Source: Chiloscyllium plagiosum | Lineage: Eukaryota | DNA: 46,290 bases | Assembly: GCF_004010195.1 (NCBI RefSeq) | Contig: NC_057757.1 | Span: forward strand, 3,181,350-3,227,639 | Direction: 5' to 3' | Notes under the pieces: generated by a model | Told to the model about the DNA's origin: nothing | Database searches by the model: none | Seen by the model: the letters and a program-made list of their open reading frames with translations, nothing else | Program-made: the position numbers and the translations under genes | Shown: positions 3,001-42,613 of the stretch, one piece after another | Layout: each line of letters starts with the position of its first letter | Position numbering within the stretch: position 1 is the first letter of the stretch

Positions 3001-4300
3001 CACACTGGAGCACACTAACACACACTGGGGTACACTGACCCATACTGGGGACACACTGACCCATACTGTGGAACGCTGACCCACACTGGTGACCCACTGA
3101 CCCACACTGTGGACACACTGACCCACACTGGGGACCCACTGACCCACACTGGGGACCCACTGACCCACACTGTGGAATGCTGACCCACACTGGGGTACAC
3201 TGACCCACACTGGGGTACACTGACCCACACTGGGGTACACTGACCCACACTGGGGAACACTGACCCACACTGTGGACACACTGACCCACACTGGGGTACA
3301 CTGACCCACACTGGGAAACACTAACCCACACTGGGGAATATTGACCAGACTGAGGTACACTGACCCACACTGGGGAACACTGACCCACACTGGGATACAC
3401 TAACACACACTGGGGAACATTGACCAGACTAAGGTACACTGACCCACACTGGGGACACACTGACCCACACTGGAGTGCACTGACACACACTGGGGACACA
3501 CTGACCCACACTGGGGGCACACTGACCCACACTGGGGTACACTGACCCACACTGGGGACACACTGACCCACACTGGGGACACACTGACCCACACTGGAGC
3601 ACACTAACACACACTGGGGTACACTGACCCATACTGGGGACACACTGACCCATACTGTGGAACGCTGACCCACACTGGTGACCCACTGACCCACACTGTG
3701 GACACACTGACCCACACTGGGGACACACTGACCCACACTGGGGACACACTGACCCACACTGGGGACACACTGACCCATACTGTGGATTGCTGACCCACAC
3801 TGGGAACACACTGACCCATACTGTGGAACGCTAACCCACACTGGTGACCCCACTGACCCACACTGGGGACACACTGACCCACACTGGGGTGACTGACCCA
3901 CACTGGGGTACACTGATCCACACTGAGGACACACTGACCCATACTGTGGAACACTGACCCACACTGGTGACCCACTGACCCACACTGGGACACACTGACC
4001 CACACTGGGATACACTGACCCACACTGGGGACACACTGACCCACACTGGGGGACACTGATCCACACTGGGGACACACTGACCCATACTGTGGAACACTGG
4101 CCCACACTGGGGACACACTGACCCATACTGTGGAACACACTGGCCCACACTGGGGACACACTGACCCACACTGGGGACACACTGACCCACACTGGGGGAC
4201 ACACTGACCCACACTGGGGGACACTGATCCACACTGGGGACACACTGACCCACACTGGGGACACACTGACCCACACTGGGGACACAGTCACCCACACTGG
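1..4300. repeat. Tandem satellite array, 20/21-bp unit CACTGACCCACACTGGGG(TA/ACA), about 200 copies, runs off the left edge
   Basis: Direct periodicity; perfect 20-mers at 1-180, variant units (CATTGACCAGACT, CCATACTGTGG) recurring in higher-order blocks further in; abrupt end near 4300. Confidence 0.98.
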
Positions 4301-5413
4301 CTGCACTGGCTTCCCTTGACTGGTTTATTCTCTCTCAGCGCACGCACTCCCCTGCCGTGTTATACGGCAGTTCTGTCACTGTCGGTGAGTGATTTTAATT
4401 CGGTTCCCTTCTCCGTCTGGGCGGCCCTCCGTATTAACGTTGACAGTCTGGTCCGGTCACCTCTCAGCCTCTGGTTAAATGCTGCCATTGACTTGGCCAC
4501 TTGCAACAACTGCCTTGTCGACTTTGATGCAAAGACCTCTCGCCCCACCACCGGCCTGACCCGCCCTTCAGTCTCCTTGTTCTGTCGTGGTGACTCTTGA
4601 GCATTAACCCTGCTTTCCCTCCACAGACCTGCTGAGTTCCTCCAGCGATTTATCAGCCCCATATCTCTCGCCCCATCTGTTTGTCCCTGTCTGGCCTGTC
4701 AGTCTATTTCTATATATAACCACATAGAAGCCTGTCTTTGTCTGTTTATACGTGACTCAGTCTATTTATAAGACTGGATCTTGTCCACTCTCACGTACAC
4801 ACAGCCTGTGAATTGGGAAAGTTGCCTGCTACGTTTCGCCACCCAGTGCTACATTTGGTACCCCCCCAACCACTCACCACTCATTCAAATCCCGCAGCTT
4901 CTGTTCTCTCGCTCGCACTTCCTGACGGATTTATCACATGCAGCCTTCCCCCAGCACCGTCCGGGGACTACAGACGTACCTAAAACTTTCAAACATTAAG
5001 ACGTCAGGTAAGACACGAATGTCTATGAAGATTTGTCCTGAGGGTCTCCCAGCAGGGTAAGGGCTGAGGGGTCGGTGGGGAAGGGGGGGCCCAGAAGCGA
5101 GGTACCACCCTTTTGATATGTGGGAAAGAGGTGGGTGGGGGTGGTGGTGTGGTTAAACGTGTTTTTAGAAAGATACACCCCCCCTTCCTCATCCCTCTGT
5201 CACTGGGAGACAGAGCTTGGGAGAGGACTCTCTCTCTCTCCCCCTTACACACAGACACACACACACACAGACATAGACGCACACACACTCAGACACACAC
5301 AAACCGGTCTATTGAACGTGGCAGGGAGAAGGGTGGGAGGATTTAGTTCTCGTGAGGAAATTGTCTGATTTCAAGCTACACTTGGTTTTTGGGGATGTGG
5401 AGATGTAGAGACG

Positions 5414-6193: not shown

Positions 6194-6797
6194 ATGTATG
6201 TGAGCTCTTTACTTTTGTTACTTGTGGCTCGAGGACTAGCAAGGAGCTGTCCAGCCCCTTGTAGCTGCTGGAATAAGGTGTCGGACTGCAGCGATAAGGA
6301 ATTGGTCGCCCCGCCTTTCGGCTTGCCCTTGCACACCACCAACCTCAGCCTGGCTCACAACAAAGTTCTCGCCCTGCCCCCGGGCTACTTCTCCTGCTAC
6401 ACCGACCTGATGGTGCTCGACCTCCGCAACAACTCGCTGACCGAGCTGCCGGCCGGCCTGTTCCGGCCGCTGGTCAAGCTGACCCACCTGGACCTGAGCT
6501 ACAACAACCTGAGCCGCCTCACCCGGGAGCTGCTGAGGCCGGCCCGCAACTTGGTGCACCTCCTGCTCAGCCACAACCCCGGGCTGTCGGTGATCGCTCC
6601 GCGGGCCCTCTCCGGACTGCCGCGCCTCCAGCACCTGGACCTCAGCTTCGACGGCCTGACCGGGGTCAGCCAGGACCTGCTGGACGGCCTGCCCGCCACC
6701 GTCTCCGTGCGCCTGGCCGGCAACCCTTGGCTGTGCGGCTGCTCCATGGAACCCCTCCTCAAATGGGTGGCCAGGAATCTCCACCAGTGCAACTCCG
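6194..6797 (+). CDS. LRRC55: LRRC55 coding exon 1: signal peptide, LRRNT (CPAPCSC...C), LRR repeats, start of LRRCT (GNPWLCGC)
   Basis: ORF with hydrophobic leader, LxxLDLxxNxL repeats and GNPWxCxC cap; ends at phase-1 donor TCCG|GTGAGT (6798) that joins in frame to the exon at 24414. Confidence 0.95.
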
Positions 6798-7055
6798 GTG
6801 AGTTGGGGGGCGAGGGGGGTGGGGTTCATCACCGAGTTGCCTTAAACAAAAAAACGCGGGACCGACCCCACCACAACATGGGACCTGGTCAACTCTGTCC
6901 ACAGCCGGTGGCCCGGCGTCGACCCCAGTTTGCTGCCAGATGAGAGAGAGAGTTTTGTGAGCTCTTCGACTAGGGCAGGCAGCACGGGGCTCCCCCACCC
7001 CCAACAAGTGCCTGCCTCACGGGGGAGCTTGTTTCAATAGAGGTGGCCTGATACA

Positions 7056-7620
7056 AGTTCATAAAGTAATGAGGGGGGTAGATAGAGTAGCTGTCTTTTC
7101 CATAGGATGGGGGATTTCAGGACTAGGGGGCACATTTTTCAGGTGAGAGGGAGAGGGATTTTTAAAAAAAGACACCAGGGGCAACTCTTTTACACAGAGA
7201 GTGGTTGGTGTATGGAATGAACTTCCAGCGGAAGTGGTGGATGAGAGCACAGTTACAACATTTTAAAGGATGGATACATGAAAAGGAAAGGTTTGGAGGG
7301 ATATGGGATAGGAGCAGGCAGGAGGGACTAGGTTAGTTTGCAATTATGCTCAGCATGTACAGGTTGGACCTGTTTCTATGCTGTTTGACTCTGAATAGGA
7401 AAGGTTTGGAGGGATATGGGGTAGGAGCAGGCAGGTGGGACTAGGTTAGTTTGCAATTATGCTCGGCATGTACAGGTTGGACCTGTTTCTATACTGTTTG
7501 ACTCTGAATAGGAAAGGTTTGGAGGGATATGGGGGTAGGAGCAGGCAGGTGGGACTAGTTCAGTTTGAGATTATGCTCGGCATGGACAGGTTGGACCTAT
7601 CTCCATGCTGTATGATTCTA
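7056..7620 (+). mobile_element. CR1-type LINE 3' end with the terminal ~113 bp tandemly triplicated
   Basis: RT C-terminal remnant (FTQRVVGVWNELP-like) followed by three near-identical 3'UTR copies starting near 7280, 7393, 7506. Confidence 0.85.
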
Positions 7621-7706
7621 TAATAGGAGCAGCGGCCAGTCATTTAACCTTGTGAACTTGCACGTGCATTCCTAGAAATCATGAGTCTGCCATTCTGCCC
7701 TTTGAG

Positions 7707-7907
7707 AAAGTGAGAACCGCAGATGCTGGAGATCAGAGTGTGGCACTGGAAAAGCACAGTAGGTCAGGCAGCACCAAGGAGCAGGAGAATCGATGTTTCA
7801 GTCAAAAGCCCTTCACCAGGAATGATGAAGGGCTTTTGCCCAAAACGTTAATTCTCCTGCTCCTGGGATGCTGCCTGACCTGCTGTGCGTTTCCAGCACC
7901 ACACTGT
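7707..7907. mobile_element. Penelope-like terminal-repeat insert in inverted (fold-back) arrangement with two decayed hammerhead motifs; 17-bp TSD
   Basis: Arms are reverse complements about ~7820; CCATTCTGCCCTTTGAG at 7690-7706 and 7908-7924; same family as the insert joined to GIY-YIG sequence at 41.8-42.2 kb. Confidence 0.8.
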
Positions 7908-8164
7908 CCATTCTGCCCTTTGAGCCTGCTCCACCATTCAATATGACCATCCAAGGCATTTCCTGCTCCCACTTAGAGTCGTAGAATTGTACAGCATGGA
8001 AACAATCCTTCGGTCCAACTCATCTGTAGCAGGGCCACAGGGAAAGTAGAGAGGACATAAATTAATTGGATAATCTTAACAAAGCTGTAACAGCAGACGT
8101 GTAGTGGGCTGAATGACTGCTTTCTGATTTGAGTGTTTCCATGATTCCACCTAAGGTCACCTGT

Positions 8165-8670
8165 GTCATAGAGCTGTACAGCACGGAAACAGAGCCTTTG
8201 GTCCAACTGATCCATGCTGACCAGATATCATCAATTAATCTAGTCCCATTTGTCAACATTTGGTCAGTATCCCTCTAAAAACCCTTCCTATTCATATACC
8301 TATCCAGCTGCCTTTTAAATGTTGTCATTGTACCAGCCTCCCCCACTTCCTCTGGCAGCTCATTCCATACATGCACCACCCTCTGTGTGAAAAAGTTGCC
8401 CCTTCGATCCCTTTTAAATCTTTCCTCTCTCACCTTATACTAATATTTAGTTTTTGACTCCCCTAGCCTGGGGTAAAGACTTTGGCTATTCACCCTGTTC
8501 GTGCCCCTCATGATTTTATAAACCTCTAAAAGGTCACCCCTCAGCCTTTGACACTCCTGGGAAATTAACCCCAGCCTATTCAGCCTTTCTCTATAGCTCA
8601 GAGTCTTCAACCCTGGCAACATCCTTGTAAATCTTTTCTACACACTTACAAGTTTCACAATATCTTTGCT
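8165..8670 (-). mobile_element. CR1-type LINE 3' fragment
   Basis: Minus-strand RT C-terminus (LSYRERLNRLGL...RGDLLEVYKIMRG) plus 3'UTR and tail. Confidence 0.85.
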
Positions 8671-8959
8671 CCCCTTTACCCTTTGATCCCTTTGGGCCTG
8701 AAAATGATATCTAACTTCAACAGGAAGGATGTTGATTAAGATAATTGGTGAAAAAGACAAATTTGACATGAGGTAATGTTTTATCACTTGACATAGTGAG
8801 TTCTTGTCCCACCTGAAGGGAGCAGACTCAATCCAACTTTTGGGAGGGAATTAGATTAATACTTTGAAAAGGAAAATAAAATATAAATGGTAGGGGTATG
8901 AGGAAAGTAGAAATGACAGGAATCAATTGGATTATTTTAACACCGCTGTAGATATGTGT

Positions 8960-9835
8960 GGAATGAACTTCCAGAGGAAGTAGTGCAGGCAGGTACACTA
9001 CAATTATTAATAGATATTCAGATAAGTAGGTGAATAGGAAAGGATTGGAAGAATATGTGCCAAAACTGGGCACATGAGACTAGTTTAATTTGGGATTATG
9101 GTTGGCATGGACTGGTTGGACCAAAGGATCTGTTTCCATGCTTTATGTATTATAGAGATACAGAGTTATGTAACACGGAAACAGACCCTTCAGTCCAACT
9201 CATCCATACCAACCAGATACCCTAAATTAATCTAGTCGCATTTGCCAGCATTTGGCCCATATCCCTCTACACCCTTCCTATTCAAGTAGCTATCCAGATG
9301 CCTTTTAAATGTTATCATTGTACCAGCCTCCACCACTTCCTCCAGCAGCTCATTCCATGCACACACCACCTTCTGTGTGAAAAAAGTTTCCCCTTAGGTG
9401 TCTTTTAAATCTTGCCCCTCTCACCCTAAATCTATGCCCTCCAGTTTTGGACCCCCCCACCCTGGGAAAAGGACCTTCGGTGTTCACCCTATCCATGCCC
9501 CTTGTGATTTTATAAACCTCTAGAAGATCAGCCCTCAGCCTCCAATACTCCAGGGAAAATAACCCCATCCTTTTCAGCCTCTCCATATAGCTCAAGGCCT
9601 CCAAACTTGGCAACATCCTTGTAAATCTTTTCTGCACCCTTTCAAGTTTAATAACATCTTTCTTATAGCAAGGAGATCAGAACTGAAACCAGTATTCCAA
9701 AAGTGGCCTAACAAATGTTCTGTACAGCAGTAACATGGCCTCCCAACTGCTATACTCAATGCACCAGTCAATAATGGCAAGTGTACCAAACACCTTCATC
9801 ACTAGCCTGTCTACCTGCAATTCCACCTTCAAGGA
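8960..9835. mobile_element. Tail-to-tail CR1 pair: short + copy (~8960-9150) and longer - copy (~9165-9835)
   Basis: ORF 9350-9637 (-) QKRFTRMLP...RADLLEVYK; conserved 3'UTR in both orientations. Confidence 0.85.
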
Positions 9836-9890
9836 GGTGATGTTCTTTTTAAAAACAATTATGGAATTTCACGGTTCCATAATCCCTTAT

Positions 9891-10225
9891 GGGTGGTACA
9901 GTGGCTCAGTGGTTAGCACTGCTGCCTCACAGTATCATGGACCTGGGTTCGATTCCAGCCTCAATGACTGTCTGTGTGGAGTTTACACATTCTCACTGCA
10001 TCTGTGTGAGTTTCCTCCAGGTGTTCCAATTTCCTCCTACAATCCAAAGATGTGCAGGTTAGGTGATTTGGCCAAGCTAAATTGCCCCATAGTGCCCAGG
10101 GATGTGTGGGTTAGGTGCATTAGTCAGGGTAAATGTAGAGAAACAGGGTAGGGGGATGTGTCTGGGTGGATTACTCTTCGAGTGTCATTGTGGATTTGTT
10201 TCCACATTGTAGCGGATTCTATGAA
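9891..10225 (+). mobile_element. tRNA-derived SINE (HE1/V-SINE-like)
   Basis: A box GGCTCAGTGGTTAG, B box GGTTCGATTCC, core GTGGAGTTT..CATTCTC, LINE-like tail. Confidence 0.85.
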
Positions 10226-10593
10226 ATAATTAGAATTCATATTGTATTGAGTTCCGCCAGCACAGAAATAGGTCACTACAGGTCAATATTTACTGGCCAC
10301 ATTTGCCACTCTCTTCCCCTCGTACTGACTTTGAGTGGTGGGGCCATGTGGAGTACAAATTATTCTGGAGGACTCAAGGGAAACTGTAGCACAGAATTGG
10401 AACAAGAGATAGCTATTGAAGTTCTTTGGTCTTGCACTCATCAGGACAGAATGGCAAGAATGCCAACTCTTGAACAACAATTTATACTTCATGGGAAGAG
10501 GGTGTCAACAGATTGGCATTTTCATGGAGAATGCACCAGGGAACAGTAATGGACAAATTTCAGTTCAAAGCAGGCAAGTTGTCTCTTGTTTAT

Positions 10594-11410
10594 AGAAATA
10601 TAGAAAATAGGTGCAGGAGCTGGCTATTCAGCCCTTCGAGCCTGTAGCACTAGTCAATATGATCATGGCTGATCATGCAATTTCAGTATCCCAGTCCTGC
10701 TTTCTCTCCACCCCCCTTGGTCCCTTTAGCTGTAAGAGCTATATTCAGCTCCCTCATGAATATATCTAATGAACTGGTTCCAATAGCTTCCTGTGGGAGA
10801 GAATTCCACAGGTTCCCAACTCTCTGAGGGAAGAAATTCTTCCTCATCTCCGTTCTGAATGGCTTCTCCCTTATTCTTAGACTGTTAGCCCTAGTTATGG
10901 ATGCCCCCTACATTGGGAACATTCTTCCTGCATCCAGCCTGTCTGGTCCCATCAGGATTTTATATGTTTCTATGAGATCCCCTCTCATTCTTCTAAATTC
11001 TGGCAAACACAAGCCTAGCCGATCCAGTCTTTCCTTATATGTCAGTCCTGCCATTCTGGGAATCAGTCTGGTGAACCTTCGCTGGACTCCCTCAATAGCA
11101 AGAATGTCCTTCCTCAGACTAGGAGACCAAACCTGCACACAATATTCAAGGTGTGGCCTCACCAAAGCCCTTTATATAAATATAGCAAGTCATCCCTACT
11201 TTGATACACCAATCATCTCACTATGAAGGAGAGCATGCCATTAGCTTTCTTCACCACCTGCTGCGCCTGCATGCCAACCGTCAGTGACCGCTCCACCATG
11301 ACTCCAGGGTATCGTTGCACCTCACCTTTTCCTAAACTGCCACCAATCAGATAACAATCTGCCTTCCTGGTTTTGCCACCAAAGTCAATACCCTCCATTT
11401 ATCCACATTA
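10594..11410 (-). mobile_element. CR1-type LINE RT/3' fragment
   Basis: ORFs 10908-11165 (VRPHLEYCVQVWSP...RGDLIETYK) and 11213-11398. Confidence 0.9.
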
Positions 11411-11889
11411 TTATCAAGGATTTTCAATGGGTAAATACGCCAGGCTGCTCCCCCCACTCCAAGCTTTCATTCAGCTGCTGTCTGTCAAGGACAGGGTGTG
11501 TGAAGATTGGTGGTTTCTGGTATGTTGTCAGCCAGCTATGCTGCAATCAGCTTAAGTGGCAGTACCTCTACCAATCTGGGTCCACTTGCCCAACCAATCG
11601 CTGCCCCTTTTCTCATGTGGACTACATTGCTGCCCCTTTTGAGGTTTGGCATTCTTGCCATCAGGACGATTTAAAAAAAGCCCCAACAGCATGACTTCAG
11701 CAACAGTTAGGAATCGAGATAAGTCAATGAGGGAGACAGTTATATAAAGCAACATTGACAGGATTGGATTTAATCAGAATGAATGGATGCATTCCATTTG
11801 CATGAGGTGCTCAAAATAGTGCTTAGTGGAATTTTTGGTTTGTTGTTGACAGGGCATCAAGGCATTGATAGTTGCCATGTGAAATAGGA

Positions 11890-12040
11890 GCGTGGTGTAA
11901 TGGTAGTGTTGTAGTGGACTAGTAAGAGGGGGACATGGCTTCAAATTCCACCAGTGCAGATGGTGGAGTTTGAATTCAATTTGGAATTAAAATTGGACCA
12001 AATGGTGACTATCTCACCGTCAAACCCATCTAGCTGACCG
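11890..12040 (+). mobile_element. Decayed SINE of a second tRNA-derived family
   Basis: Similar to the reverse complement of the copies at 44830-45515 (GGTTCAAATCCCACC...GGAATTTGAATTCAAT-like). Confidence 0.55.
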
Positions 12041-12622
12041 AGCCACAGATACAAGGGCAAGCTAGCTTTTGGTAAACTGAGAAGGGGATAGATGCAACTC
12101 ATCACCCAACCTGTTTATGTTTAGCGTCCAAACTGTTGAAGACTTGACTTGCCAGACCGAAGTGTCAGGGTCAGGATCCACCTAACCTCCAGCTTGTATC
12201 TTGAAGTTATTCGAGCAAGTGGGGGAGATTCTGCGTCTGAAATCAAAGGGCTCTGCCAAGATTAAGAACAGACAGTTCTGCAGCCTGAAGTTTTCTCAAT
12301 CCACCTATAAATACATGTGTTTATCTCACGGCCCAGACATCTGAGAGAATGTGTGACTGAGTGACAGAAGATTATTTTTGGAAGCAGCCAGATGTTTTGC
12401 ATTTCTTTCCATTGCTGGATTCTTGTCATCTGGTGTAATTTCAATTCCCACTATCTGTCTCTGTCTATCTTCAGCTGCCTATTTCTCTCTGTCTCTTTCA
12501 TTCTGTCTGTCTCTTTCATTTTGTCTGTCTCCCTCTGTCTGCTTCTCTTGGTCTCTTTCCCTCACCCTGTCCTTCTCTGTCTATGTTTGTCTGACATACT
12601 TGCTCTCCATTCCTCTCTTTGT

Positions 12623-12784
12623 TGAAAATGTGTTGCTGGAAAGGCGCAGCAGGTCAGGCAGCATCGAAGGAACAGGAGAATCGACGTTTCGGGTATAAGC
12701 CCTTCTTCAGGAATCTTCGGGCTTATGCGCTTTTCCAGCAACACATTTTCAGCTCTGATCTCCAGCATCTGCAGTCCTCAATTT
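12623..12784. mobile_element. Penelope-like terminal-repeat insert, partly inverted
   Basis: GAAAATGTGTTGCTGGAAA...TTTCCAGCAACACATTTTC arms; possible low-complexity TSD CTCTCTTTGT (12613-12622, 12785-12794). Confidence 0.8.
12683..12710 (-). ncRNA. Minimal type I hammerhead ribozyme motif, intact core
   Basis: Minus strand reads CUGAAGA-A-GGG(CUUAUA)CCC-GAAA-CGUC. Confidence 0.7.
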
Positions 12785-13874
12785 CTCTCTTTGTGTCTCT
12801 CACCTGTTCTTTCTCATTTTGCCCATCTGTCTCTTTCCCTCTCTGTTCTTTCATTCTGACTCTGTCTCTCTGTCTCTGTGTCTGTCTCTGTTTCTTTCTC
12901 CCTGTCTCTGTTTCTTTCTCCCTGTCTCTGTTTCTTCCAGAGCTCAGAGCTCATTCCCCAGCATCCCTGTGGCTGCTTTGACTTTCCATCTCTAGTAAAA
13001 CTCGCGGTTCCTCATTGTCCTTCTCTCTTTTTCTCTCTCTCTGTCTGTCTCTTTCACTCTGTCTCTCTCTCTGACTCACACTGCCAATCTCTCTGTTCCC
13101 TGCTTCTCTCAGTGTAGCCAATTCTCTCTGCCTCAATCTCTTGATATTTCTTTCTCTGTCTTTTACTTTGTGTCTATCTCTCACTTTCTATCTGCCTCAC
13201 TTTACCATTCTTGCCCTTCTATCTCAGTCATTATCTTCACCTCACTGTACTTTCCTCTCCATATCTCTCTTTCTTTCTGTCAGTTTCTATTTTCTCTCTC
13301 TTCAAGCATCTGTTTCTCTCTCTTTCTCCATTTCCTCTGAGCTTCTCAATGCACCCTTCACTCTTTCTCTCCCTCTGCTACTTTCTGTATGTCCCTGTCC
13401 ATTTCTCACTGTCTCACTTTCTCCCGCACACGTAAAATGTATGAGCTATACTCATATGAATATTCAAAGATAGAACTTTGACCCACATAGGTTGGAAATA
13501 CTTACATTTATTTTTGTGTTGACAATCCAGTTTGATAGTCCCCAGCTTCTGTTATAATCTCCTGTTCTGTAGTGGATGCACTGACCCCAATAGTTTCCTG
13601 TAATTGACCTTAATTAAGACGGAGTAACTGTGCAAAGATCATTAATCTCTCAGTAGTGGGGTTATGACACAGAAGAAAATGAGGACAGTATAACTTAATT
13701 GCGGGTACTGGGTGTGAATATTCCCAGTTTAAGGGGTGGGGGAATGGACAGAACTGAATTGTACTGCTAGTCATAGATTGTTGCTGAACAATGGGAGCCA
13801 ACTATGCAATGAACATATAGGGTTAAGAATTAGTTAGTAACTGTCTTCAGGTTGTCAATGGGCGAAGGTGCAGG

Positions 13875-14365
13875 CCTCAGAATTCAGGATATTATTTAAT
13901 TGGAGAGAGTGCAGAAAAGATTGACAAGGGTGTTACAGCAATTGGAGGGCTTGAGTTATAAGGAGATGCTGGGACTTTTCTCCCTGGAGTGTAGGGGGTT
14001 GAGGGCTGACCTTAAAGGTTTATAAAAATCATAAGGGGCATGGATAGGGTGAATGGTAAAGGTCTTTTCCCCCTGAGTAGGGGAGCCTGAAACTAGAGGA
14101 CATGGCTTTAAGGTGGGGAGGGAAAGATTTAAAAGGGACATAAAGGGCAATTTTTTCACACAGAGGGTGGTTCATAAGTGTAATGAATGCCAGAGGAAGT
14201 GGTAGCTGCAGGAACAATTACATTTAAAAGACATTTGGATAGGTACATGAATAGGAAAGGTTTAGAAGGATGTGGACCAAACACAGGCAAATGGGACTAA
14301 TATGGTCAGAGTGGATGAATTGGGCCCAAGGGTCTGTTTCCATGCTGTATGACTCTATGACTCTA
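13875..14365 (+). mobile_element. CR1-type LINE 3' fragment
   Basis: LERVQKRLTRVL-like remnant, 3'UTR, GACTCTAT tail repeats. Confidence 0.85.
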
Positions 14366-14562
14366 TTGACTGAAGGACTGGTCATGTCTTTGACCAGAGA
14401 CTGCTACCTTGATCCAACTATTTCCTCAAGGTGGGGCTAACTCCGCAAGGGGAAGACTATCTCCTTGCTTTGAGGTACCTCCATGGGATGAGGCCTTTGA
14501 AATGAAATTCCGACCTTTTGATGATGCAATTCCCCTCCAACTGAGGCAGTTCGATTGAGATT

Positions 14563-15185
14563 AGAGTCATAGAGCTGTACAGCACAGAAACAGACCCTTT
14601 GGTCTAACTCATCCATGCTGACCAGAAATCCTAAATCAAAAGAATCCCATTTGTCAGCACTTGGCCCATATCCCTCAAAACCCTTCCTATTGATGTACTA
14701 TCCAGATGCCTTTAAATACTGTAATTGTACCAGCCTCCACCACTTATTCTGATAGCTCATTCCATATACAGACAGACTCTGCGTGAAAAAGCTACTCCTT
14801 ATGTCCCTTCTAAATCTTTACCCTGTCACCCTAAACCTGTGCCCCCTAGTTCTGGACTTCCCTATGCCAGGGGAAAGACCTTGTCTACTCATCTTGTCCA
14901 TGCCCCTCATGAATTTATAAACCTCTTTAAGGTCACCCCTCAGCATCCCATGCCTCAGGGAAAACAGCCGCAGCCTATTTAGCCTCTCCCTATAGCTCAA
15001 ACCCTCCAACCCTGGCAACATCCTTGTAAATCTTTCTCAACCCTTTCAAGATTCACAACATCCTTCCTGTCGGAGAGAGGCCAGAATTGCACACAATATT
15101 CCAAATGTAGCCTAACCAATGTCCTGTACAGCTGCAACATGACCTCCCAACTCATACACTCCATACTCTGACCAATAAAGGAAAA
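14563..15185 (-). mobile_element. CR1-type LINE 3' fragment
   Basis: ORFs 14818-15021 and 14997-15335 (LQLYRTLVRLHLEYCVQFW; LEGLSYRERLNRL). Confidence 0.9.
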
Positions 15186-15256
15186 CAGACTGACGTCTGT
15201 GAAGTTAAAGGATTTCCCTGAGGGTTGGAAGTGATGACTTGAGAAAGCATGACCTT

Positions 15257-15437
15257 TTGAGATGGTCCAGCACCATCGGAGATAGGACCTCGCTATTTGT
15301 GGTGGTACCTCATTGGTTGAGGTGATACTCACCATCTGAGGTTGTATCTCACTCTTTGAGCTTGTACATCACTGTCTGGGGGTGGCAGCCCATGGTCTGA
15401 GATGGCACATAATTATCTGAGGTGGTACATCACAGCA
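15257..15437. repeat. Degenerate ~20-bp tandem repeat (TGAGGTGGTACATCACTGTC-like), ~9 copies
   Basis: Recurrent TGAG(G/A)TGGTAC.TCAC at ~20-bp spacing. Confidence 0.6.
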
Positions 15438-16244
15438 TATGATCTTTTGCAGTTTCAGGCAAAATCCAAGCAGAAGCCCTTGGGATTGAACTGAACCCTC
15501 TGTTGATGCCCACTCTCCCCCTACCAATTCCCCCATCCTACCCTCTCCATTCCCTCAAATCTCGGTAGGCGCTGCGAAGAATGGGATGACCTTGAGGGCA
15601 TTGCGGAGGCAATATAAAGCCAAAATAAAGTATTGAGCCACAGCCAGTTCTCAAAAAGAAATATTTGAGGGCCTGCTACTGAGATCAAGTCAAACAGTAG
15701 CCCAGTGCTTGAGAGAAGCCTGCATTAATCAACGAGAGAATGTATTCGCAACTAGGTCACTGAGCGCAAAGATAAACTCACAACATGGCACAGGGGACCA
15801 GGGAAGCTTGCCAGCTCAAAGGAACATAACCAGCCCCTTCCATATTCAATTTGTGCCTCATTGACAAGTTGAACAGTAGAAGACAAATGAACAGAAGTAT
15901 ACAGACCTGTTTCCAGACAGTCATAAATCTCAGTGATGAGGCAGCTCCGACACCTCTTGGAGCAATGGTGGAACAAATAAATAATTTCCACTCTCACCAC
16001 CTCCCCCACCCCCTCCACCCCACCATTCCCAGAGATTTCTTCCGATTCATATCGCAGCCGGAGGCAGAGAATTAATCCCAAAGAAAGGCTCATAATCTAT
16101 CAGGTCCCAGTCCAAACCTTGCTACTAGGAAACTACAACTCAAACCTAATTGGAATCATTATACATTTAGCCCCGACTCTGCTGTCTACCCAGGTCATGA
16201 TCTTTCGGACTCAAGGTAATTTTTCTGCACTGTTCCCTTAATTC

Positions 16245-16563
16245 ATAGAATTCCTCCAGTGTGGAAAGAGTCATTCAGCCCATCGAGTCAACTCTAACCC
16301 TCCCACCCAAACCCACCACCCTACACTACAACCCTCCATTTCCCAAGGCTAATCCACCTAGCCTACATATCCCTGGACACTACAAGGGCAATTTAGCCTG
16401 GCCAATCCACTTGGCCTGCATAGCTTTAGACTGTGGGAGGGAACCCACACAGATACAGGGAGAATGTGCAAACTCCACACAGACAGCCCCCAAGGGGGGA
16501 ATTGAACCTGAGTTCCTGGCACTGTGAAGCAGCAGTACTAACCACTGAGCCACCATGCTGCCC
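16245..16563 (-). mobile_element. tRNA-derived SINE (HE1/V-SINE-like)
   Basis: Reverse complement of A/B boxes and core. Confidence 0.85.
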
Positions 16564-16786
16564 CACATGGCCTCTGCACACCATTTATATCTAGCAATCA
16601 GCCTATGTCATCTTGAATGCCTCAACTGAACCTGCCTTCTCATATACATTCAAGACTCTCACTGACAGACAGTAAAAGACTCATTGGGGATTCTTCATCA
16701 GCTTGAGCTAATTCAAACTTCTGCCAAGTCCAATTCTCCCACTGCACACCTGCCCTTTTACCCACTGCCTGACTGCTCAATAACCT

Positions 16787-17025
16787 ATCTCAGTAGCAGG
16801 CCCTCAAATATTTCTTTTTGAGAACTGGTTGTGGCTCAATACTTTATTTTGGCTTTATATTGCCTCCGCAATGCCCTCAAGATCATCCCATTCTTTGCAG
16901 CGCCTACCGAGATTTGAGGGAATGGAGAGGGTAGGATGGGGGAATTGGTAGGGGGAGAGTGGGCATCAACAGAGGGTTCAGTTCAATCCCAAGGGCTTCT
17001 GCTTGGATTTTGCCTGAAACTGCAA
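16787..17025 (-). repeat. Inverted copy of 15447-15685 (239 bp)
   Basis: Base-by-base reverse complement with three mismatches seen. Confidence 0.95.
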
Positions 17026-17297
17026 GCTGATGAAGAATCCCCAATGAGTCTTTTACTGTCTGTCAGTGAGAGTCTTGAATGTATGTGAGAAGGCAGGTTC
17101 AGTTGAGGCATTCAAGATGACATAGGCTGATTGCTAGATATAAATGGTGTGCAGAGGCCATGTGGGGCAGCATGGTGGCTCAGTGGTTAGTACTGCTGCT
17201 TCACAGTGCCAGGAACTCAGGTTCAATTCCCCCCTTGGGGGCTGTCTGTGTGGAGTTTGCACATTCTCCCTGTATCTGTGTGGGTTCCCTCCCACAG
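17023..17297 (-). repeat. Inverted copy of 16431-16705 (275 bp, includes SINE head)
   Basis: Base-by-base reverse complement with one mismatch seen; overlaps the previous segment by CAA. Confidence 0.95.
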
Positions 17298-18251
17298 GTT
17301 ATTAACTTGTATCGCATGATATAGAACATTGTGCAATGTATTTACGATACAGAAATTCCTCTCTATTTTCAACCTAATCTGTGCTACATAAAGTTTGGTA
17401 CCGCCAGCTGGTTTTGGGACTGGAGAACTTGTACTTTTGTGTCAATAAGCAATTGCCCAGTTGAGATGACCAGAAGACAGAGGAGCAGAAGTGGGCTATC
17501 AGCCCATCAAGCCCACTCTGATATTAAATGAGGATCATGGCTGATCTATTTATCCTCAGCTCCACTTTCCTGCCTTTCCCCTTGGCTCACCTTCCTGATT
17601 AAAAATACCTCTCTCTCTCAGCCTTGTATATCCTTATTGACACAGCCTCATCTTATCTTCCCTTCATTGCTCACACCTTTGAGTACAGGAGTTGGGAGGT
17701 CATGTGATGAGGTTCTACAGCACGTTGGTGAGGCCTCTTCTGGAGTACTGTGCATTAAGTTCTGGTCACCCTGGTATGGGAAGGATATTTTTGGGCTGGA
17801 CAGAGTTCAGAGGATATTTACCAGGGCGTTGACGGGAATGGAGAGTTTGAGTTTTATGGATAGGCTGGGACTTCTTTCTCTGGAGCATGGGAGGTTGAGG
17901 GGTGATCTTACAGAGATTTATAAAATCATGAGGGGCATAGATAAGGTGAATGGCAGGTGTCTTTTCCCTCTGGTGGGGGTGGGGGTGGGATGGGGTTCAA
18001 GACTAGGTTACATTTCTAGGGTGAAAGGAGAAAGATTTCTTTTTTAAATGAGGGGCAATTGTTTTTAAACAGTAGTTCGTGTGTGTAATGAACATCTAGA
18101 GGAAGTGGTGAATGAGGGTACAGTTACAAGGTTTAAAATACATTTGGATACATACATGAATAGGAATGATTTGGAGGGATATGGGCCAAGCGCAGGCAGT
18201 GGGACTACCTTGGTTTGGGATTATGCTCAGCATGGACTGGTTGGACCAAAG

Positions 18252-18697
18252 AGGTAAAAACAATGACTGCAGATGCTGGAAACCAGATTCTGGATTAGTG
18301 GTGCTGGAAGAGCACAGCAGTTCAGGCAGCATCTGAGGACAGGCAAAATCGACGTTTCGGGCCAAAGCCCTTCATCAGGAATAAAGGCAGAGAGCCTGAA
18401 GCATGGAGAGATAAGCTAGAGGAGGGTGGGGGTGGGGAAAGAGTAGCATAGAGTACAATAGGTCAGTGGGGGAGGAGATGAAGGTGATAGGTCAGGGAGG
18501 AGAGGGTGGAGTGGATAGGTGGAAAAGGAGCTGGGCAGGTCGGACAAGTCCGGACAAGTCAAGGGGACAGTGTTGAGCTGGAGGTTAGGACATTGTTGAA
18601 GAGCTTCAGGGCAGAGGAAATGACCTGGGAGTTGCAGTGGGAGAGAGACTCCCTGAGATTCTTGTAGAGAGAGGAGGAAAACTTCAAACTTCTTCAA
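18252..18697 (-). mobile_element. Penelope-like insert (terminal repeat plus internal piece) in a CR1 3' end; 13-bp TSD
   Basis: GGTTGGACCAAAG at 18239-18251 and 18698-18710; insert absent from the paralogous copy at ~32.1 kb. Confidence 0.85.
18351..18378 (-). ncRNA. Minimal type I hammerhead ribozyme motif, intact core
   Basis: Minus strand reads CUGAUGA-A-GGGC(UUUG)GCCC-GAAA-CGUC. Confidence 0.75.
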
Positions 18698-19553
18698 GGT
18701 TGGACCAAAGGGTCTGTTTCTGTGCTGTATGACTCTATGAGCTCTTTACCCAACATGCATCAAATTAGAAATTCTCACCCCATTTTCAAATGCATTCCAA
18801 TTTTAACTCCTTTGCCAAGGCCTGGCCCTCAGCTCTGCCCAAGACACAACAGTCTTCACCCACTTCATTAATGACCTTCCGTCCATTGCAAGGTTATTGA
18901 TGATTGCATAATGTTCAGCACCATTACTGCCTCCTCAGACACTGAAGTGTTGATGTGCAATAAATTCTGGAAACCTTTCAGGCTTGGAATAAAGAGTGAC
19001 ACTTGACATTCATGGCAACTAAGACCCAGGCAGTAAACATTCCCAAAAAACAGAAAGTCTTAACTATTGCCCCTTGACATTTAGTGGCATTCCCATCACT
19101 GGAGTGTTCTGGATTATTGCTTATCCATGGAAGTGGAGAGTATTTCATTAGACTTGTGCCTTGTAGATTGTGGACAATGCATTAAATAGTACCACTGTTT
19201 TTAACTATCTCCAGAATTGATTGCTGCCTAGAGTTGTTGACAACTTCACACAGAAAGTGTGGGACTGGAGTTATGTGGAGGCTCAAACTAGGCATCTTTT
19301 AAAAAATTCATTAATGGGATGTGTGTGTCGCTAGCTAGGCTGAATTTATTGCCCTGAAGAATGTGATGGCATGCTTGAACTACTTCAGTCCTCGAGCTGT
19401 AGAACCACCTGCACTGTTGTTAAAACCTAAAGCAGGGCAGAAACAGCATGATTGTTCAGAGATGGCGTAGTAGTCCAGGCAGGAGATCACTGAGAGCCAT
19501 GTTAGGGAGGTTGCACAAGTGAAGTGTTAAGGCTTGAGAGTGTGTTTCATCAA

Positions 19554-20065
19554 ACAGTGTAGAGAGAGCTTTACTGTACATCTAATCCTGTGCTGTCCCT
19601 GTCCTGGGAGTGTTTGATGGGGGACAGTATAGAGAGGGCTTGACTCTGTATCCAACTCCATTCTGTCCCAGTCCTGGGAGTGTTTGATAGGGGACAGTAT
19701 AGAGGCAGCTTTACTCTGTATCTAACCCTGTGCTGTCCCTCTCCTGGGAGTGTTTGATGGGGGGACAGTGTAGATGGAGATTTACTTTGTATCTAATCCT
19801 GTGCTGTTCCAGTCCTGGGGAATGTTTGATGGGGGACAGTGTAGAGGAAGCTTTACTCTCTATCTAACCCTGTGCTGTCCCAGTCCTGGGAGTGTCTGAT
19901 GGGGGACAGTACAGAGGGAGCTGTACTTTGTATCTAACCCCATGCTGAACTTGTCCTGGGAGTGTTTGATGGGGGACAATGTAGAGATAGCTTTACTCTG
20001 CAATTTTGTGCTGTCCCTGTTCTGGGGAGTGTTGGCTGACTCAGGCTAGAGGGAGCTTTGTACTC
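19554..20065. repeat. Minisatellite, 70-71-bp unit, ~7 copies
   Basis: ACA(G/A)T anchors at 19554, 19624, 19694, 19765, 19836, 19906, 19976; unit ...GAGCTTTACTCTGTATCTAACCCTGTGCTGTCCC.GTCCTGGGAGTGTTTGATGGGGG. Confidence 0.95.
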
Positions 20066-20534
20066 AGTATTGCATTCAGAAACATTTATTATACATTGTG
20101 CCAATATTCATCCATTCTCCAAGTATCTAATTACTGTCTGCTGGTGTCAAATGCAGAGTTCATTAGATCAGTAACCTGTTGTGAGTCTTTGATTTGACTT
20201 TGCAGAGGAAGTGGATGATGAAACATTTGTATCACTGTGAATTCAGATTGGCTGTAACGTCCTGGTGGTGTTTGTGACTTTAGATTAAGGAGTGACTCAC
20301 AGAAATGAATGAGCTGCAGTTCCCTCGTATTGTAGCTTGTCTATCTCAAAGCTGACACCACACTTACTCCAATTCAACTCTTGATCTTTGTCTGGTTCGA
20401 ATGTGTCTCAGTTGGAATGTATTGTTTCCAAGTTTTGCCTGTGTGCAGTCAGTCCCACTGTAGGAGTTCTTTCACTTCATATCAAAGATTCCATAGAATC
20501 TGAATTCATTGCACAGCAGGTAAATATTTGGGAG

Positions 20535-21440
20535 AAACTGGCATCACCATTTTCTCCCCATAGCCTTGTGTCAATCCCAAGCTAATTCCAATCCCCGTTC
20601 TATCTCCACTCCCCTGTATCAACCCTCAAACCATTCCCACTGTCCTGTGCTCTCCCCACAGCCTGAGTCAATCCCAAATTAATTACACTGCCCCACTCTA
20701 TCTCCATCCCCCTGTATCAATCCTCAAACTAACCCCACTGCCCCACTCTCTCCCCATAGCCCTGGATTAATCTCCAAACTAATCCCACTAACCCATTCAG
20801 TCCCCCTTGCCCTGTGTCAATCCCACTGACCCACTGTCTCCCCACAACCCTGTATCAATCCCAAACTAATCCCACTGCCCTGCTCTAACCCTACTGTCCC
20901 CTGTATCAATTTCCAAACTAATCCTACTGCCCCGCTCTATCCCCATTGTCCTGTATCAATTCCCAAATTAATCCTATTGCCTCATTCAGTCCCTGTTCCC
21001 TAGATCAATCCCTAAATCAATCCCACTGTTACCCCCCAGCCCTGTATCAATCCCCAAACTAATCCCACTGTCCCACTCTTTCTTCATTGTCCTGTATCAA
21101 TTTCCAAACTAATTCCACTGTCCCACTTTCTTCATTGTCCTGTATCAATTTCCAAACTAATCTCACTGCCCCATTCTCTCCCCATAGCTCTGTATCAATC
21201 CCAAACTACTCCCACTGCCCTGCGCTATCCCCATTGCCTTTTGTCAATCCTAAACCAATCCCACTGCCTGCTCCCTCCCCATGGCCCTGTATCAATCCCA
21301 AACTACTCCTACAGCCTTGCTCCATCCCCATGGCCCTGTGTCATTCACAAACCAATCCCACTGCCCGGTCCCTCCCTGTGGCTCTATATCAATCCCAAAC
21401 TAACCCCTGCTGTCTCCTCCATATCAATTTTAAACCAATT
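20535..21440. repeat. Minisatellite, ~49-50-bp C-rich unit, ~18 copies
   Basis: CCTGTATCAATCCCAAACTAATCCCACTGCCCC... recurring mostly every 48-51 bp. Confidence 0.92.
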
Positions 21441-21917
21441 TAAAGTTGCTACAATCCCAAAGATATTGGGTGGGGTCAATCAATCTTGAATGAGAGAGCA
21501 GTTAAATATGCAACATGGTGACCTCATCCAGATCATACCACAGTTACGGTCAGCGGCATATGGTTGCTGAACAACTCTCAACAAGTCTTGTCACATGGGT
21601 CCCCTGCTCATGAATACCGATCTGGTGAAAATTTGGTTGAAAATCTAACCATGTTGGTCACTGAAGAGCTGAAGGTGAGCCAGGAGAAGCCTAAAGGGAG
21701 AACGATTGATATATTAGACTGAGGAACATGGGCCTTTCATCTCAGAACTGAGGGCATTCAGTGGGGAAGTTTATAAAGATTAAATATTATCGGAAAGATA
21801 AATGTGGGGGATTTATTTTCAGTTAATCTGTGAGGGTAGAATAAAGGACACAAGATCTAATCAACAGTAAAGAAAATTTAACATATCTAGCAGGAAATCT
21901 TTCTCTGTCCAGAGAGA

Positions 21918-22250
21918 GGTGGCTCAGCAGTTAGCACTGCTGCCTCACAGCACAGGGACCCAGGTTCAATTCCACTCTCAAGCTGTGTGGAGTTTGCACA
22001 TTCTCCCTGTATCTGTATGGGTTTCCTCCAGGTGCTCTGGTTTCCTCCCTCAGATCAAAGATGTGCAGGTCGGGGGGATTGGCCATGCCTAAATTGCCCA
22101 ATAGCATCCAGAGATGTGCAGGCTGAGTGGGTTGGCCATAGGAAATGCAGGGATAGGGTGGGGAGATGGGTCTGGGTGTCATGATCTTTGGTGGATTGAT
22201 GTGGACTCGATGGGCCAAATGGCCTGCTTCCACACTGCAGAGATTCTAGA
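21918..22250 (+). mobile_element. tRNA-derived SINE (HE1/V-SINE-like)
   Basis: A/B boxes, core and tail. Confidence 0.85.
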
Positions 22251-23069
22251 ACTAGATTGATGTTAAAAATTGGAATAAAGACACTCAATGCAGACATGCA
22301 AAGCTTAAATCCACTTGTATATTGGAATATGCAAGGCCTTTGACAATTCTGTGCTTCTTGAAATTCACTGATGCCATCAATGAGACACAAAGCAGGTCAT
22401 CTTATCATGACCTCATTGCGAATTGTGCGATCTTGCTGTACACAAAATGGCAGCTGCATATATATGACAACAGTGATGTCGCTTCATGTGGGTGAAAGGT
22501 TATTGGGGTAGATGGGAATATGAGGCAATGAGATCTTATTGAATGGTGGGGCAGGCTTGAGGGGCTGAGTGGCCTACTCCTAAACCCTATGCCCATTCAT
22601 TTCAGTGTGCATTGGGTTGACCTGAAAATATGAAAGCTGCTACAGAAATGCAGCATTTATGCTTGTTGTAAGCATATTTTTTACATGTAGGTGGCGCTTA
22701 ATCAACACAATACAGTAGAAGGTAATTTTGAACTTGAGGACCTCACTGAAAAGAGAAGACATCTTGCCATCTGGAACTATCATCAGGACAAATGCACGAA
22801 TGTCAAATTCTAGACGGTTCCAATTTATACCACAGAAGGGAGCTGATTGGTTGGCAAGTTGACTCTGATTTGCCACATTGTTGCTATGGTGAAGGCAATG
22901 TGGAGCTATAGGCTTTCGTAATTTGGCTGTTGGAAATTTGGCATCATTGGATTTGTCCTGATGAAGGCTCAACAAGAAAGTTTGGCAACATGTCTATATT
23001 TTCAACAATGTTGAAAATGCTCTTTAATATCATGATAGACCTCATCCAAAAAAAAAGGTTATCTAAGTG

Positions 23070-24355
23070 TGCAATGCAATCATGATCAGCTGGACCAATG
23101 GGCTGAGGAGTGACAGATTGAATTTAATTTAGATAAATGCAAGGTGTTGTATTTTGGAAAGACAAACAAGGGCAGGACTTGCTCAGTTAATGGGAGAGCC
23201 CTGGGGAAGGTTGCTTAACAGAGAGACTTAGGAGTCCAGGCACATAGTTCATTTAAAGTGGTGTCACAGTTAGATAGGGTGGTGAAGAAGGCATTTTGCA
23301 TGTCTGTCTTCATTGGACAGAGCACTGAGTATATGAGTTGGGACATCATGTTATGGCTTCACAGAACATTGATGAGGCCACTGAATACTGGACCACAGTT
23401 CTGGTCACCCTACTATAGAAAGGATACTATTGAACTGGAAAGGGGGAAGAAAAGATTTGCAATGATGTTACCAGGACTGGAGGGTTTGAGTTATAAGGAG
23501 AGGCAAGATAGGCTGGGACTTTTATTTTTCCTGGACCATAGGAGGTTGAGGGGTGGACTTATAGAAGTTTATAAGTTTACTTATAGAAGTAAATCATGGG
23601 GGGGCATAGATACGGTGAATAGCAAAGCTCTTAATGTTAAGGGCATAATGTTAAGGTGAGAGGAGAAAGATTTAAAATGGAGCTGAAGGACAACTTTTTC
23701 ACACAGAGAGTAATATATACTGTATGTGAAAGGAACTTCCAGAGGAAATGCTAGATGTTGGCACAGTTACAAACTTTAAAACACATTTGTCAAGTACATT
23801 AATAGGAAAGATTTAGAGGGATATGAGCCAAAGGCAGCAAATGAGACTAGTTTAGTTTGGGAAACTTCATCGGCATGGACAAGTCGGACCAAAATATCTG
23901 TTTCTGTGCTGCATGACTCTATGACTTTATTACACTTATGACATTTGGAAGGTACATGACTAGTAGAGGTTTAGAGGGATATAGGCCAAACACAGGCAAA
24001 TGGGACTAGTTCAGTTTGGGATTTTGTTTGGCATGGTCGAGTAGATCTTAAGGATCTATTTCTGTGCTGTATTACTCTATGACCTTTGGACTGGCACATG
24101 AATAGGAAAGGTTCAGAGGGATATGGTACAAATGGGACTAGTTCAGTTTGAGATTCTTGGTTGGCATGGACAAGTTGGTATGAAGGGTCTGTTTCCATGC
24201 TGTATAACTCTAAGACTATATGGCATTTGAACAGGTACATGATTAAGAAAGGTTTAGAAGGATATGGCCTGGATGTAGGCAAATGGGACTAGTTTAGTTG
24301 GGAAATTGGTCAGCATGGAAGGGATGGACTGAGAGGTGTTTCCATGCTGTGTGAA
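23070..24355 (+). mobile_element. CR1-type LINE 3' fragment followed by about four tandem 3'UTR copies
   Basis: ORF 23258-23659 RT remnant; repeated AATAGGAAAGG...GGGACTAGTT..GTTTG...GACTCTATG units. Confidence 0.88.
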
Positions 24356-24413
24356 TCTGGATAAAATTGAGTTCTTTTGTTCTGTCATAACTTTCTGAGG
24401 CTTTTTGTGTCAG

Positions 24414-24649
24414 ATTCCAGGGAAGTGGAGTGCGCTGGTCCACCAGAGGTCAAAGGTATTCCACTCTTCACCCTGACCGAAGAGAGCTTTAAGGCATGCC
24501 ACTTCTCGTTGACCCTGGATGACTATCTCTTCATTGCCTTTGTTGGCTTCATTGTGTCCATTGCATCAGTCGCCACAAACTTCCTTCTGGGAATTACTGC
24601 CAACTGCTGCCATCGCTGGAACAAGGCAAATGAAGAGGAAGAGATGTGA
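24414..24649 (+). CDS. LRRC55: LRRC55 coding exon 2: end of LRRCT, transmembrane helix, short acidic cytoplasmic tail
   Basis: Acceptor TTTTTGTGTCAG|AT, phase 1; ECAGPPEV...[46 protein letters not shown] closely matches the mammalian LRRC55 C-terminus as I recall it; spliced CDS 840 nt, 279 aa. Confidence 0.96.
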
Positions 24650-31722: not shown

Positions 31723-32050
31723 CCCATGTCTCACTCCTTCTTCATCTGCCCCAAAATATCCTTCTACTCTTCTGCCCTCATATGTTGAGCTAGTATTGCT
31801 GTTATTCATCTCAACTGATGCCTCTGGTAGTGGATTCCAAGTGCTCACTACCCTTTGGGGATTAGTGATTGGCAAACATATGGTTCCTCCATTCTGGGCT
31901 TACCCATATTGTCTCTTTGTCAACCTTATCAAACCCTCCCATGTTCCTAAGACCTCAAATGGTCACCTCTTAGCCTCTCTTCAAAATGAAAAGACCCTCC
32001 AGCCTGTTCAGATCTTCCTAATTATGATTTTACAGTTCAGGTAGAGAACA

Positions 32051-33162
32051 GAGTTATAGAGTCATACAACACAGAAACAGAAGCTTCGGTCCAAACTGTC
32101 CATGCTGAACATAATCCCAAACTAAAGTAGTCCCATTGCCTGCACTTGTCCCATATCCCTCCAACCCTTCCTATTCATGTATATATCCAAATGTCTTTTA
32201 AATATTGTAACTGCACCGCCATTCACCAATTCCTCACCACACGAACCATTGTTTAAACAATTGCCCCATATTTAAAAAAAAATCTTTCTTTCACCCTAAA
32301 AATGTGACCTAGTCTTGAAAATCCCCACCCGAGGGAAAAGACACCTGTCATTCACCTTATCTATGCCCCACGTAATTTTATAAATATCTGTAAGATCACC
32401 CCTCAACCTCCTGTGCTCCAGTGAAAGAAGTCCCAGCCTATCCATAAAACTCAAATTCTCCATTCCTGGCAACATGGAACATAGAAAAGTACAGCACACA
32501 ACAGGCCCTTTGGCCCACGATGTTGTGCCGAGATTTAATCCTAATGTAAAATATAGTAACTTAACCTACGCTTCCCTCAACTCACTGCTATCCATGTGCA
32601 TATCCAGCAGTCACTTTAACGTCCCCAATGATTCTGCAACATCACGGTAAATCTCTTCTGAACTCTGTCTAGCATAATAATAACTTTTCTATAACAGGAT
32701 GACCAGAATTTAGTGCATAGTACTCTAGAAGAAGCCTCATCATCCTGTAGAACCTCAACACACGACGTCCCAACTCCTGTACTCAAAAGGTCTGAACAAT
32801 GAAGGGAAAATGAGATGAGGCTGGATCAATAAGGATATACAAGGCTGAGAGAGACAGATTTTTTTTAATCAGGAAGGGGAGTTAAGGGGAAAGACAGGAA
32901 AGTGGAGCTGAGGATTAGTAGATCAGCCATGATCATCATATCAGAGTGGATTCGATGGGCTGAATGGCCCACTTCTGCTCCTCTGTCTTCTGGTCATCTC
33001 AACTGTGCAATTGTTTATTGACATGAAAGTACAAATACTCCTGTCCCAAAACAAACCGAAGGTACCAAACTTCATGTAGCACAGATTAGATTGAAAATAG
33101 GAGAATTTCTGTATCATAAATACATTGCACAATGTTCTATATCATGTGATATACATTAATAA
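32051..33162 (-). repeat. Copy 2 of the old inverted duplication, carrying its own 160-bp LINE-tail insert (32476-32635, TSD GCAACAT)
   Basis: Reverse complement of 17298-18742; GCAACAT at 32469-32475 and 32636-32642. Confidence 0.9.
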
Positions 33163-42000: not shown

Positions 42001-42070
42001 NNNNNNNNNNNNNNNNNNNNNNNNNNNNNNNNNNNNNNNNNNNNNNNNNNNNNNNNNNNNNNNNNNNNNN
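42001..42070. other. Assembly gap (70 N)
   Basis: Run of N. Confidence 1.
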
Positions 42071-42434: not shown

Positions 42435-42613
42435 CAACACCAGGTTATAGTCCGACAGGTTTAAACTGGAAGCACACTAGCTTTTGGAGCGACGCTCCTT
42501 CATCAGGAGATTGTCGCTCCGAAAGCTAGTGTGCTTCCAATTAAACCTGTCGGACTATAACCTGGTGTTGTGTGATTTTTAACTTTGTCCAACACCGGCA
42601 TCTCCAAATCATG
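42435..42613. mobile_element. Second-family Penelope-like fold-back insert nested in an older copy of the same family (older copy to ~42730); 13-bp TSD
   Basis: Arms 42435-42493 and 42513-42570 are reverse complements; AATCTTATTCTCC at 42422-42434 and 42614-42626; hammerhead-type CTGATGAAGGAGCGTCGCTCC(G)AAAGCTA. Confidence 0.8.

Follow-up and report, generated by a model that had tools for sequence, protein, structure and literature searches.

A probable repair scar of two nearby inverted copies in the predicted intron of an LRR gene of Chiloscyllium plagiosum

The window analysed here is a stretch of 46,290 nucleotides of Chiloscyllium plagiosum (NCBI RefSeq assembly GCF_004010195.1, contig NC_057757.1, positions 3,181,350 to 3,227,639 of the forward strand). 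It holds a predicted LRR gene of two coding exons separated by a single intron (Table 1). Two of the four GT/AG pairings tried for this intron give an open frame, and the insert described below is intronic in both. LRRC26 chains match residues 16-195 of the first exon in one stretch (E 7e-28), while other LRR proteins score higher, and the sequence points to a gene of the BK channel gamma-subunit type. We take the gene to be LRRC55-like, a name given from the C-terminus; a protein atlas search returned no name for it. Directly upstream lies a satellite array (1-4308) of 20-bp units, strongly asymmetric between the strands.

Table 1. Positions in the window of the insert, its donors, its flanks and the host gene
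Feature	Position	Strand	Remarks
Host coding exon 1	6194-6797	+	Signal-peptide-like start, LRRs; LRR_8 E 8e-25
Single predicted GT-AG intron	6798-24413	+	17.6 kb; contains the insert
Donor X	15447-15685	+	Retained in place; without other match in the window
Donor tRNA-type SINE	16246-16562	-	A-box-like motif at 16552, B-box-like motif at 16508
Donor Y	16431-16705	+	Retained in place; head half of the minus-strand SINE plus 143 bases without other match in the window
Left 8-bp arm AATAACCT	16779-16786	+	Exact reverse complement of 17296-17303
Inverted copy of donor X	16787-17025	-	Reverse complement of 15447-15685; 236/239 identical, 3 mismatches
Middle joint CAA	17023-17025	.	3-base overlap of both copies; end of Y linked to start of X
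Inverted copy of donor Y	17023-17297	-	Reverse complement of 16431-16705; 274/275 identical, 1 mismatch; 3' arm of predicted RNA stem
Copied SINE head without tail	17166-17297	+	A-box-like motif at 17176, B-box-like motif at 17220, first T run at 17366
Right 8-bp arm AGGTTATT	17296-17303	+	First 2 bases common to donor Y; also first bases of the older duplicated block
Right flank	17296-18745	+	Older inverted duplicate of about 33165-32045; about 89% identical
Later insertion	18252-18698	.	12-13-base target duplication; absent from the paralog
Host coding exon 2	24414-24649	+	LRRCT end (E 6e-4), hydrophobic helix, short tail
Right-flank paralog	32045-33165	-	Downstream of the gene; internal outgroup for the junction

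In the assembled sequence, the intron carries an insert of about 510 bases that consists of inverted copies of two nearby stretches, here called donors X and Y. The copies agree with their donors at 507 of 511 positions overall, a divergence of 0.8% (95% range 0.2-2.0%), and the four differences are all transitions, one of them at a CpG. Both matches have sharp ends, and the X and Y pairs are the longest and most perfect inverted pairs among the best 25 of the 169 in the window. The donors lie 745 bases apart, both intact and on the same (left) side of the insert, and they end 81 and 1,101 bases before it, within 1.35 kb. The template strand is plus for all copied pieces, both long pieces are inverted, and 317 nt separate donor Y from its copy. 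The coordinates given for both copies in the preliminary description proved exact to the base, with the mismatch counts listed in Table 1.

Part of donor Y belongs to a tRNA-type SINE, which we take to be HE1-like by name, and its head in the insert (17166-17286) is 88.5% identical to a copy at 44527-44648. The insert lacks the 3' tail and the target-site duplication of target-primed retrotransposition (SINE/LINE, class 1 TSIP). The SINE is cut internally, only its head is present, it has no tail, and no direct repeat was found at the edges of the insert. The earlier proposal that a SINE head was duplicated here without retrotransposition is thereby borne out.

At the left junction (16786/16787), the microhomology with the donor is 0-1 base, the first inserted A being also the first base of the right arm. 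The two copies meet in the middle on CAA, as had been described, and the donor sides of this overlap read TTG at 15447-15449 and at 16703-16705. At the right junction, the two bases AG (17296-17297) are common to the donor and the right arm. Each of these microhomologies is near chance taken singly (0.056 for at least three bases, 0.165 for at least two), and they weakly back template switching. The flanking 8-bp arms are exact reverse complements and do rejoin to a palindrome, as first reported; with AG assigned to the insert, the empty site becomes a 6-bp stem with a 2-base loop. The chance of arms of at least 8 bases between random positions, estimated from 400,000 draws, is 3e-5 when exact and 4e-4 if a slack of 0-3 bases is allowed on each side, so the structure of the insert and its link to the arms are not chance. 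The window holds eight perfect palindromes with arms of at least 6 bases, one of which has arms of at least 8. The last ten bases of the left flank (16777-16786) also mirror 18891-18900, 2.1 kb downstream, a match longer than that of the 8-bp palindrome.

The insert is probably a germline repair scar, a templated insertion made by serial template switching on nearby plus-strand DNA, which is a known class (MMBIR/FoSTeS, local n-jump). It copies nearby sequence that stays in place, and it draws on more than one template in series, the two donors being joined with a 3-base overlap. The event would have begun with a break or a collapsed fork near 16786/17296, where a plus-strand 3' end would have primed on the plus-strand DNA just behind it, either its own resected tail or the lagging-strand template. 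A first tract of 239 bases would have been copied backwards from 15685. A 3-base match would then have let the strand slip to 16705, where a second tract of 275 bases would have been copied in the same backward direction, and a 2-base match would have served for the return to the right flank. Tracts of this length suggest that the polymerase was processive (Pol delta type, MMBIR or fold-back), and closure was presumably by end joining; the order of the steps is likewise our reconstruction. A single plus-strand 3' end, one switch and then rejoining account most simply for donors on the same strand and on the left side, as inverted pieces from one side are expected from one folded-back strand. 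Serial switching from two local donors (FoSTeS/MMBIR) had been suggested in the preliminary description, and the two-donor structure, the sharp ends and the overlaps of 0-1, 3 and 2 bases agree with it. The homology of 0-1 base at the first switch counts against template switching. Excision of a DNA transposon was considered as the source of the break, and no footprint of it was seen.

Several published systems share parts of this structure. Local n-jumps are a recognised copy-and-paste class in the available text of Li et al. 2020 (PMC7025897), and they likewise bring serial local templates into one locus with copy gain, inverted junctions and retained donors. However, they are described from tumours and are generally of larger scale, whereas here a 0.5-kb germline-looking scar is known from an assembly. 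Yeast fold-back inversions at double-strand breaks also give inverted copies from one side of a break, and the available part of Yu et al. 2024 (PMC11724301) gives them 10 to >150 bp, Pol delta and closure on 0-5 bp of microhomology. They differ in being primed by a 10-bp inverted microhomology and in their length, mostly 5-34 bp, where the present insert has a priming homology of 0-1 base and two tracts of 239 and 275 bases. Short-range switching in great apes (the four-point model; Walker et al. 2021, PMC7954356, available sections) is also germline, inverted and local and creates perfect inverted repeats, and the conversion of a quasi-palindrome to a palindrome is discussed there. Its tracts have a median of 12 and a maximum of 128 bases and come from a single switch, whereas those described here are longer and consist of two or three pieces.

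Polymerase-theta TINS, as excerpted from Carvajal-Garcia et al. 2020 (PMC7165422), use direct or inverted local templates in repeated rounds with short or no priming homology. Polymerase-theta-type repair had also been put forward for this locus. The 8-base AT-rich arm fits that suggestion, but the tracts of 239 and 275 bases do not, since those in the source are rarely longer than 10 bp. Class 2 TSIPs, in the part of PMC5110952 available, are germline patches with end-joining features and neither target duplication nor poly(A); their donors are distant by definition, whereas both donors here lie so close that 81 and 1,101 bases separate them from the insert. Multi-template insertions have been modelled for the human germline (PMC7615360, partial text). 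A weak literature search, covering 15 of 335 matching papers, found no shark-specific report of such an insertion, and the number of look-alike windows found in relatives was 0.

Other routes to the same arrangement can be envisaged. With the end of Y linked to the start of X, the middle junction has the geometry of a circle joint. The insert might come from a 1,259-base intermediate, either a circle or a tandem duplication (15447-16705, closed on TTG), of which a piece containing the closing joint was captured in reverse. We regard this as quite improbable: the DNA would have to be excised, closed and cut again, and then captured 81 bases from the end of the circle itself, whereas template switching yields the same joint in one step, and the window holds no other copy of the joint. 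An RNA-templated patch is very improbable. Here, a broken plus-strand end would prime reverse transcription on the nascent RNA of the gene and jump once, with a LINE/Penelope reverse transcriptase or polymerase theta as the enzyme. X, Y, the arm and the older block described below all run antisense to the transcript of the host gene, retroelements are abundant in the genome, and RNA patches are proposed for class 2 TSIPs in the available part of PMC5110952. However, this orientation is equally expected from a DNA fold-back, the four differences include no donor A changed to a copy G, as editing would leave, and no splicing mark, tail or target duplication is seen. Neither the circle nor the RNA template has positive evidence of its own.

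It is rather improbable that the insert is an assembly or library artefact, with two local pieces misplaced in reverse owing to a chimeric molecule or a mis-resolved graph. The near-identity of copies and donors (507/511) and the local position of the donors would suit such an error, as would a scaffolded assembly, which is evident from a 70-base N gap in the window (42001-42070). Against it stand three base-precise junctions with 0-3-base overlaps, the 8-bp inverted arm and the four differences from the donors; a single chimeric molecule also rarely becomes consensus. The four transitions fit aged copies rather than sequencing error, and they could also represent two haplotypes, since transitions dominate heterozygous sites as well. 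Among the 24 runs listed (two rows with shares of 0.07-0.09 left out), sampled words of the region occur at shares of 0.40-0.78 in eight runs of one organism (two studies), the best holder of which may be the source sample, and at 0.22-0.34 in ten runs of two further organisms; none of these shares can resolve the junctions. No RNA run was among those listed, which is not evidence in either direction. The shares of the two further organisms imply a divergence of at most 3-5%, above the copy-donor distance of 0.8%, so that these organisms probably retain the allele from before the insertion. The DNA of the region exists in reads by these word shares, which are not informative on the junctions. 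An absolute age of 1.5-14 million generations at 7e-10 per generation (PMC10587355, partial text) was set aside because this rate may not suit the species or the region.

The preliminary description overlooked that the right flank is an older inverted duplicate. Between 17296-18251 and 33165-32084 (inverted), 811 of 912 aligned columns are identical, and the match resumes at 18699 and runs to a tail near 18745. The flank is made up of sequence with one other match in the window, followed by LINE pieces with a tail that we take to be CR1-like, and the insertion that interrupts it (18252-18698) is presumably Penelope-like. The duplication is old, because each copy of the block later gained an insertion of its own. 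Judged by sequence divergence (about 11% against 0.8%), it appears long to precede the insert. The homology of the older block begins at the right junction of the insert. A single position is therefore shared by the edge of this block, the young insert and the palindrome's centre.

Left of the junction, the paralog matches the left arm at four of five bases and is unrelated beyond (anchored score 5, p 0.052). A reading of the left flank as a continuation of the upstream sequence of the paralog was rejected, since its local score of 21 equals the shuffled mean and its anchored score of 5 lies below the 9-75 of 11 positive controls. Nor was a reading as a Penelope remnant supported, the observed scores being reached by 21, 48 and 19 of 200 shuffles. 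Alignment gave no sign of the left flank continuing past the duplicated block (score reached by 100 of 200 shuffles) or of the two neighbours of the paralog joining each other (195 of 200). An inversion of the interval between the two blocks was rejected on the grounds that both exons point the same way. An 8-mer shared by 16757-16764 and about 18745-18753 is a weak hint (p 0.04) of a possible decayed target duplication around the old block.

These findings bear on whether the palindrome was the cause of the repair or its product. It had been suggested that a hairpin at the palindrome stalled the fork, a claim that is poorly supported because the 16-mer folds as DNA at only -1.5 kcal/mol. The rejoined 58-mer (-2.8) is less stable than the median for the intron (-3.4), with 111 of 180 control 58-mers equally or more stable; on this modelling, the arms would not fold above background in the manner of a fragile palindrome. 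We therefore consider hairpin stalling unlikely. The same grade applies to the fuller scenario, compatible with serial template switching, in which a 16-bp palindrome already in place folded into a hairpin or cruciform, suffered a stall or break at its centre and was then patched. In one sub-case, the palindrome would have been left by the older duplication, one repair scar seeding the next. The insertion is exactly central in the palindrome, the older duplication begins at the same place, and the 4/5 core of the paralog makes the inner core look older than the insertion. Nevertheless, the folding energy lies within the intron background, the known fragile palindromes in the available text of PMC7999016 are about 200-600 bp, and the left arm mirrors the local right arm even at the base that differs in the paralog, which in a rough sketch favours a young origin by about 3 to 1.

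The right flank is an older duplicate that starts at the junction, and the core kept by the paralog is only quasi-palindromic (4 of 5 bases), so the perfect palindrome may have arisen through the repair instead of causing it. Junction repair is known to leave short inverted arms, as the available parts of three reports describe (PMC11724301, PMC7954356, PMC3734650). It is a serious possibility, again compatible with serial template switching, that the left arm is a third templated piece of 8 bases from the same event, which would also have removed the DNA once lying between the flanks, namely the upstream part of the old duplicate. A single step would then account for the homology of the old duplicate starting at the junction. 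As an inverted AT-rich tract of 8 bases, the arm would be a typical polymerase-theta insertion (PMC7165422, excerpt), small palindromes arise de novo at junctions (PMC3734650, excerpt), and the arm with two further bases mirrors 18891-18900, another plus-strand template. However, this reading requires an extra switch without microhomology, the template of the arm must stop exactly at the later return point of the strand, and the paralog core argues for some earlier adjacency. On balance, we lean slightly towards arms that predate the insertion, hold their formation in the same event together with a deletion to be quite possible, and consider a chance origin highly improbable.

The older block and the young insert can also be combined. 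It is doubtful, if conceivable, that one position was patched twice at widely separated times, an inverted copy from 15 kb downstream leaving the 8-bp arm and a later two-piece copy from 0.1-1.3 kb upstream hitting the centre of the palindrome. A version in which a retroelement reverse transcriptase extended the broken end along RNA of the gene itself has very little probability; if true, the germline would here preserve a trace of RNA-templated repair in cis, one scar seeding the next.

Serial template switching at this locus would also have left a structure in the transcript. A 275-bp near-perfect stem with a 317-nt loop had been proposed for the pre-mRNA, and the predicted fold agrees: all 275 positions of the Y stem pair (the alternative X stem excluded), inside the predicted intron. 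The region folds at -699.5 kcal/mol, against -251 to -360 in all six controls of the same length. On the gene model, the stem would be a long, near-perfect intronic dsRNA within one transcript, of the kind proposed earlier as a candidate ADAR or endo-siRNA substrate. Among the 28 inverted alignments of at least 100 nt in the intron, only the X and Y pairs exceed 83% identity, the other 26 being older. If transcribed, the Y stem would be a plausible editing substrate in this model, and the intronic RNA stem is most likely a neutral by-product. The right junction (17296-17297) also carries an AG that is acceptor-like in the host sense, with a pyrimidine-rich stretch of 14/20 that equals the count of the true acceptor, and a donor-like motif lies at 17728, 430 bases past this AG; both, like the A-box-like and B-box-like motifs of the copied SINE head, are motif matches only.

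A single case matters little, local inverted templated insertions being a described class. The locus is nevertheless a clean example of how repair, rather than transposition, can copy a SINE promoter and in the same step give rise to a 275-bp intronic hairpin. Whether small junction palindromes are cause or product could also be tested cheaply here, as relatives should hold the earlier allele. The case would carry greater weight if the stem proved to be edited or to affect how the host gene is spliced, or if scars of this kind were biased with respect to transcription genome-wide.

Further features of the window include intronic minisatellites at 19484-20070 and 20546-21407, with units of about 70 and 49 bases, and a LINE tail at 7279-7628 in three tandem 113-base copies, the first two of which are 96% identical. 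A long open LINE reverse-transcriptase frame occupies 36872-37900 on the minus strand (RVT_1 E 4e-16), and short fold-back elements at 7737-7905 and 42435-42570 look to us like Penelope ends. A GC-rich, promoter-like stretch at 43253-43471 has undergone a young tandem duplication of 109 bases, with 97% identity between the copies.
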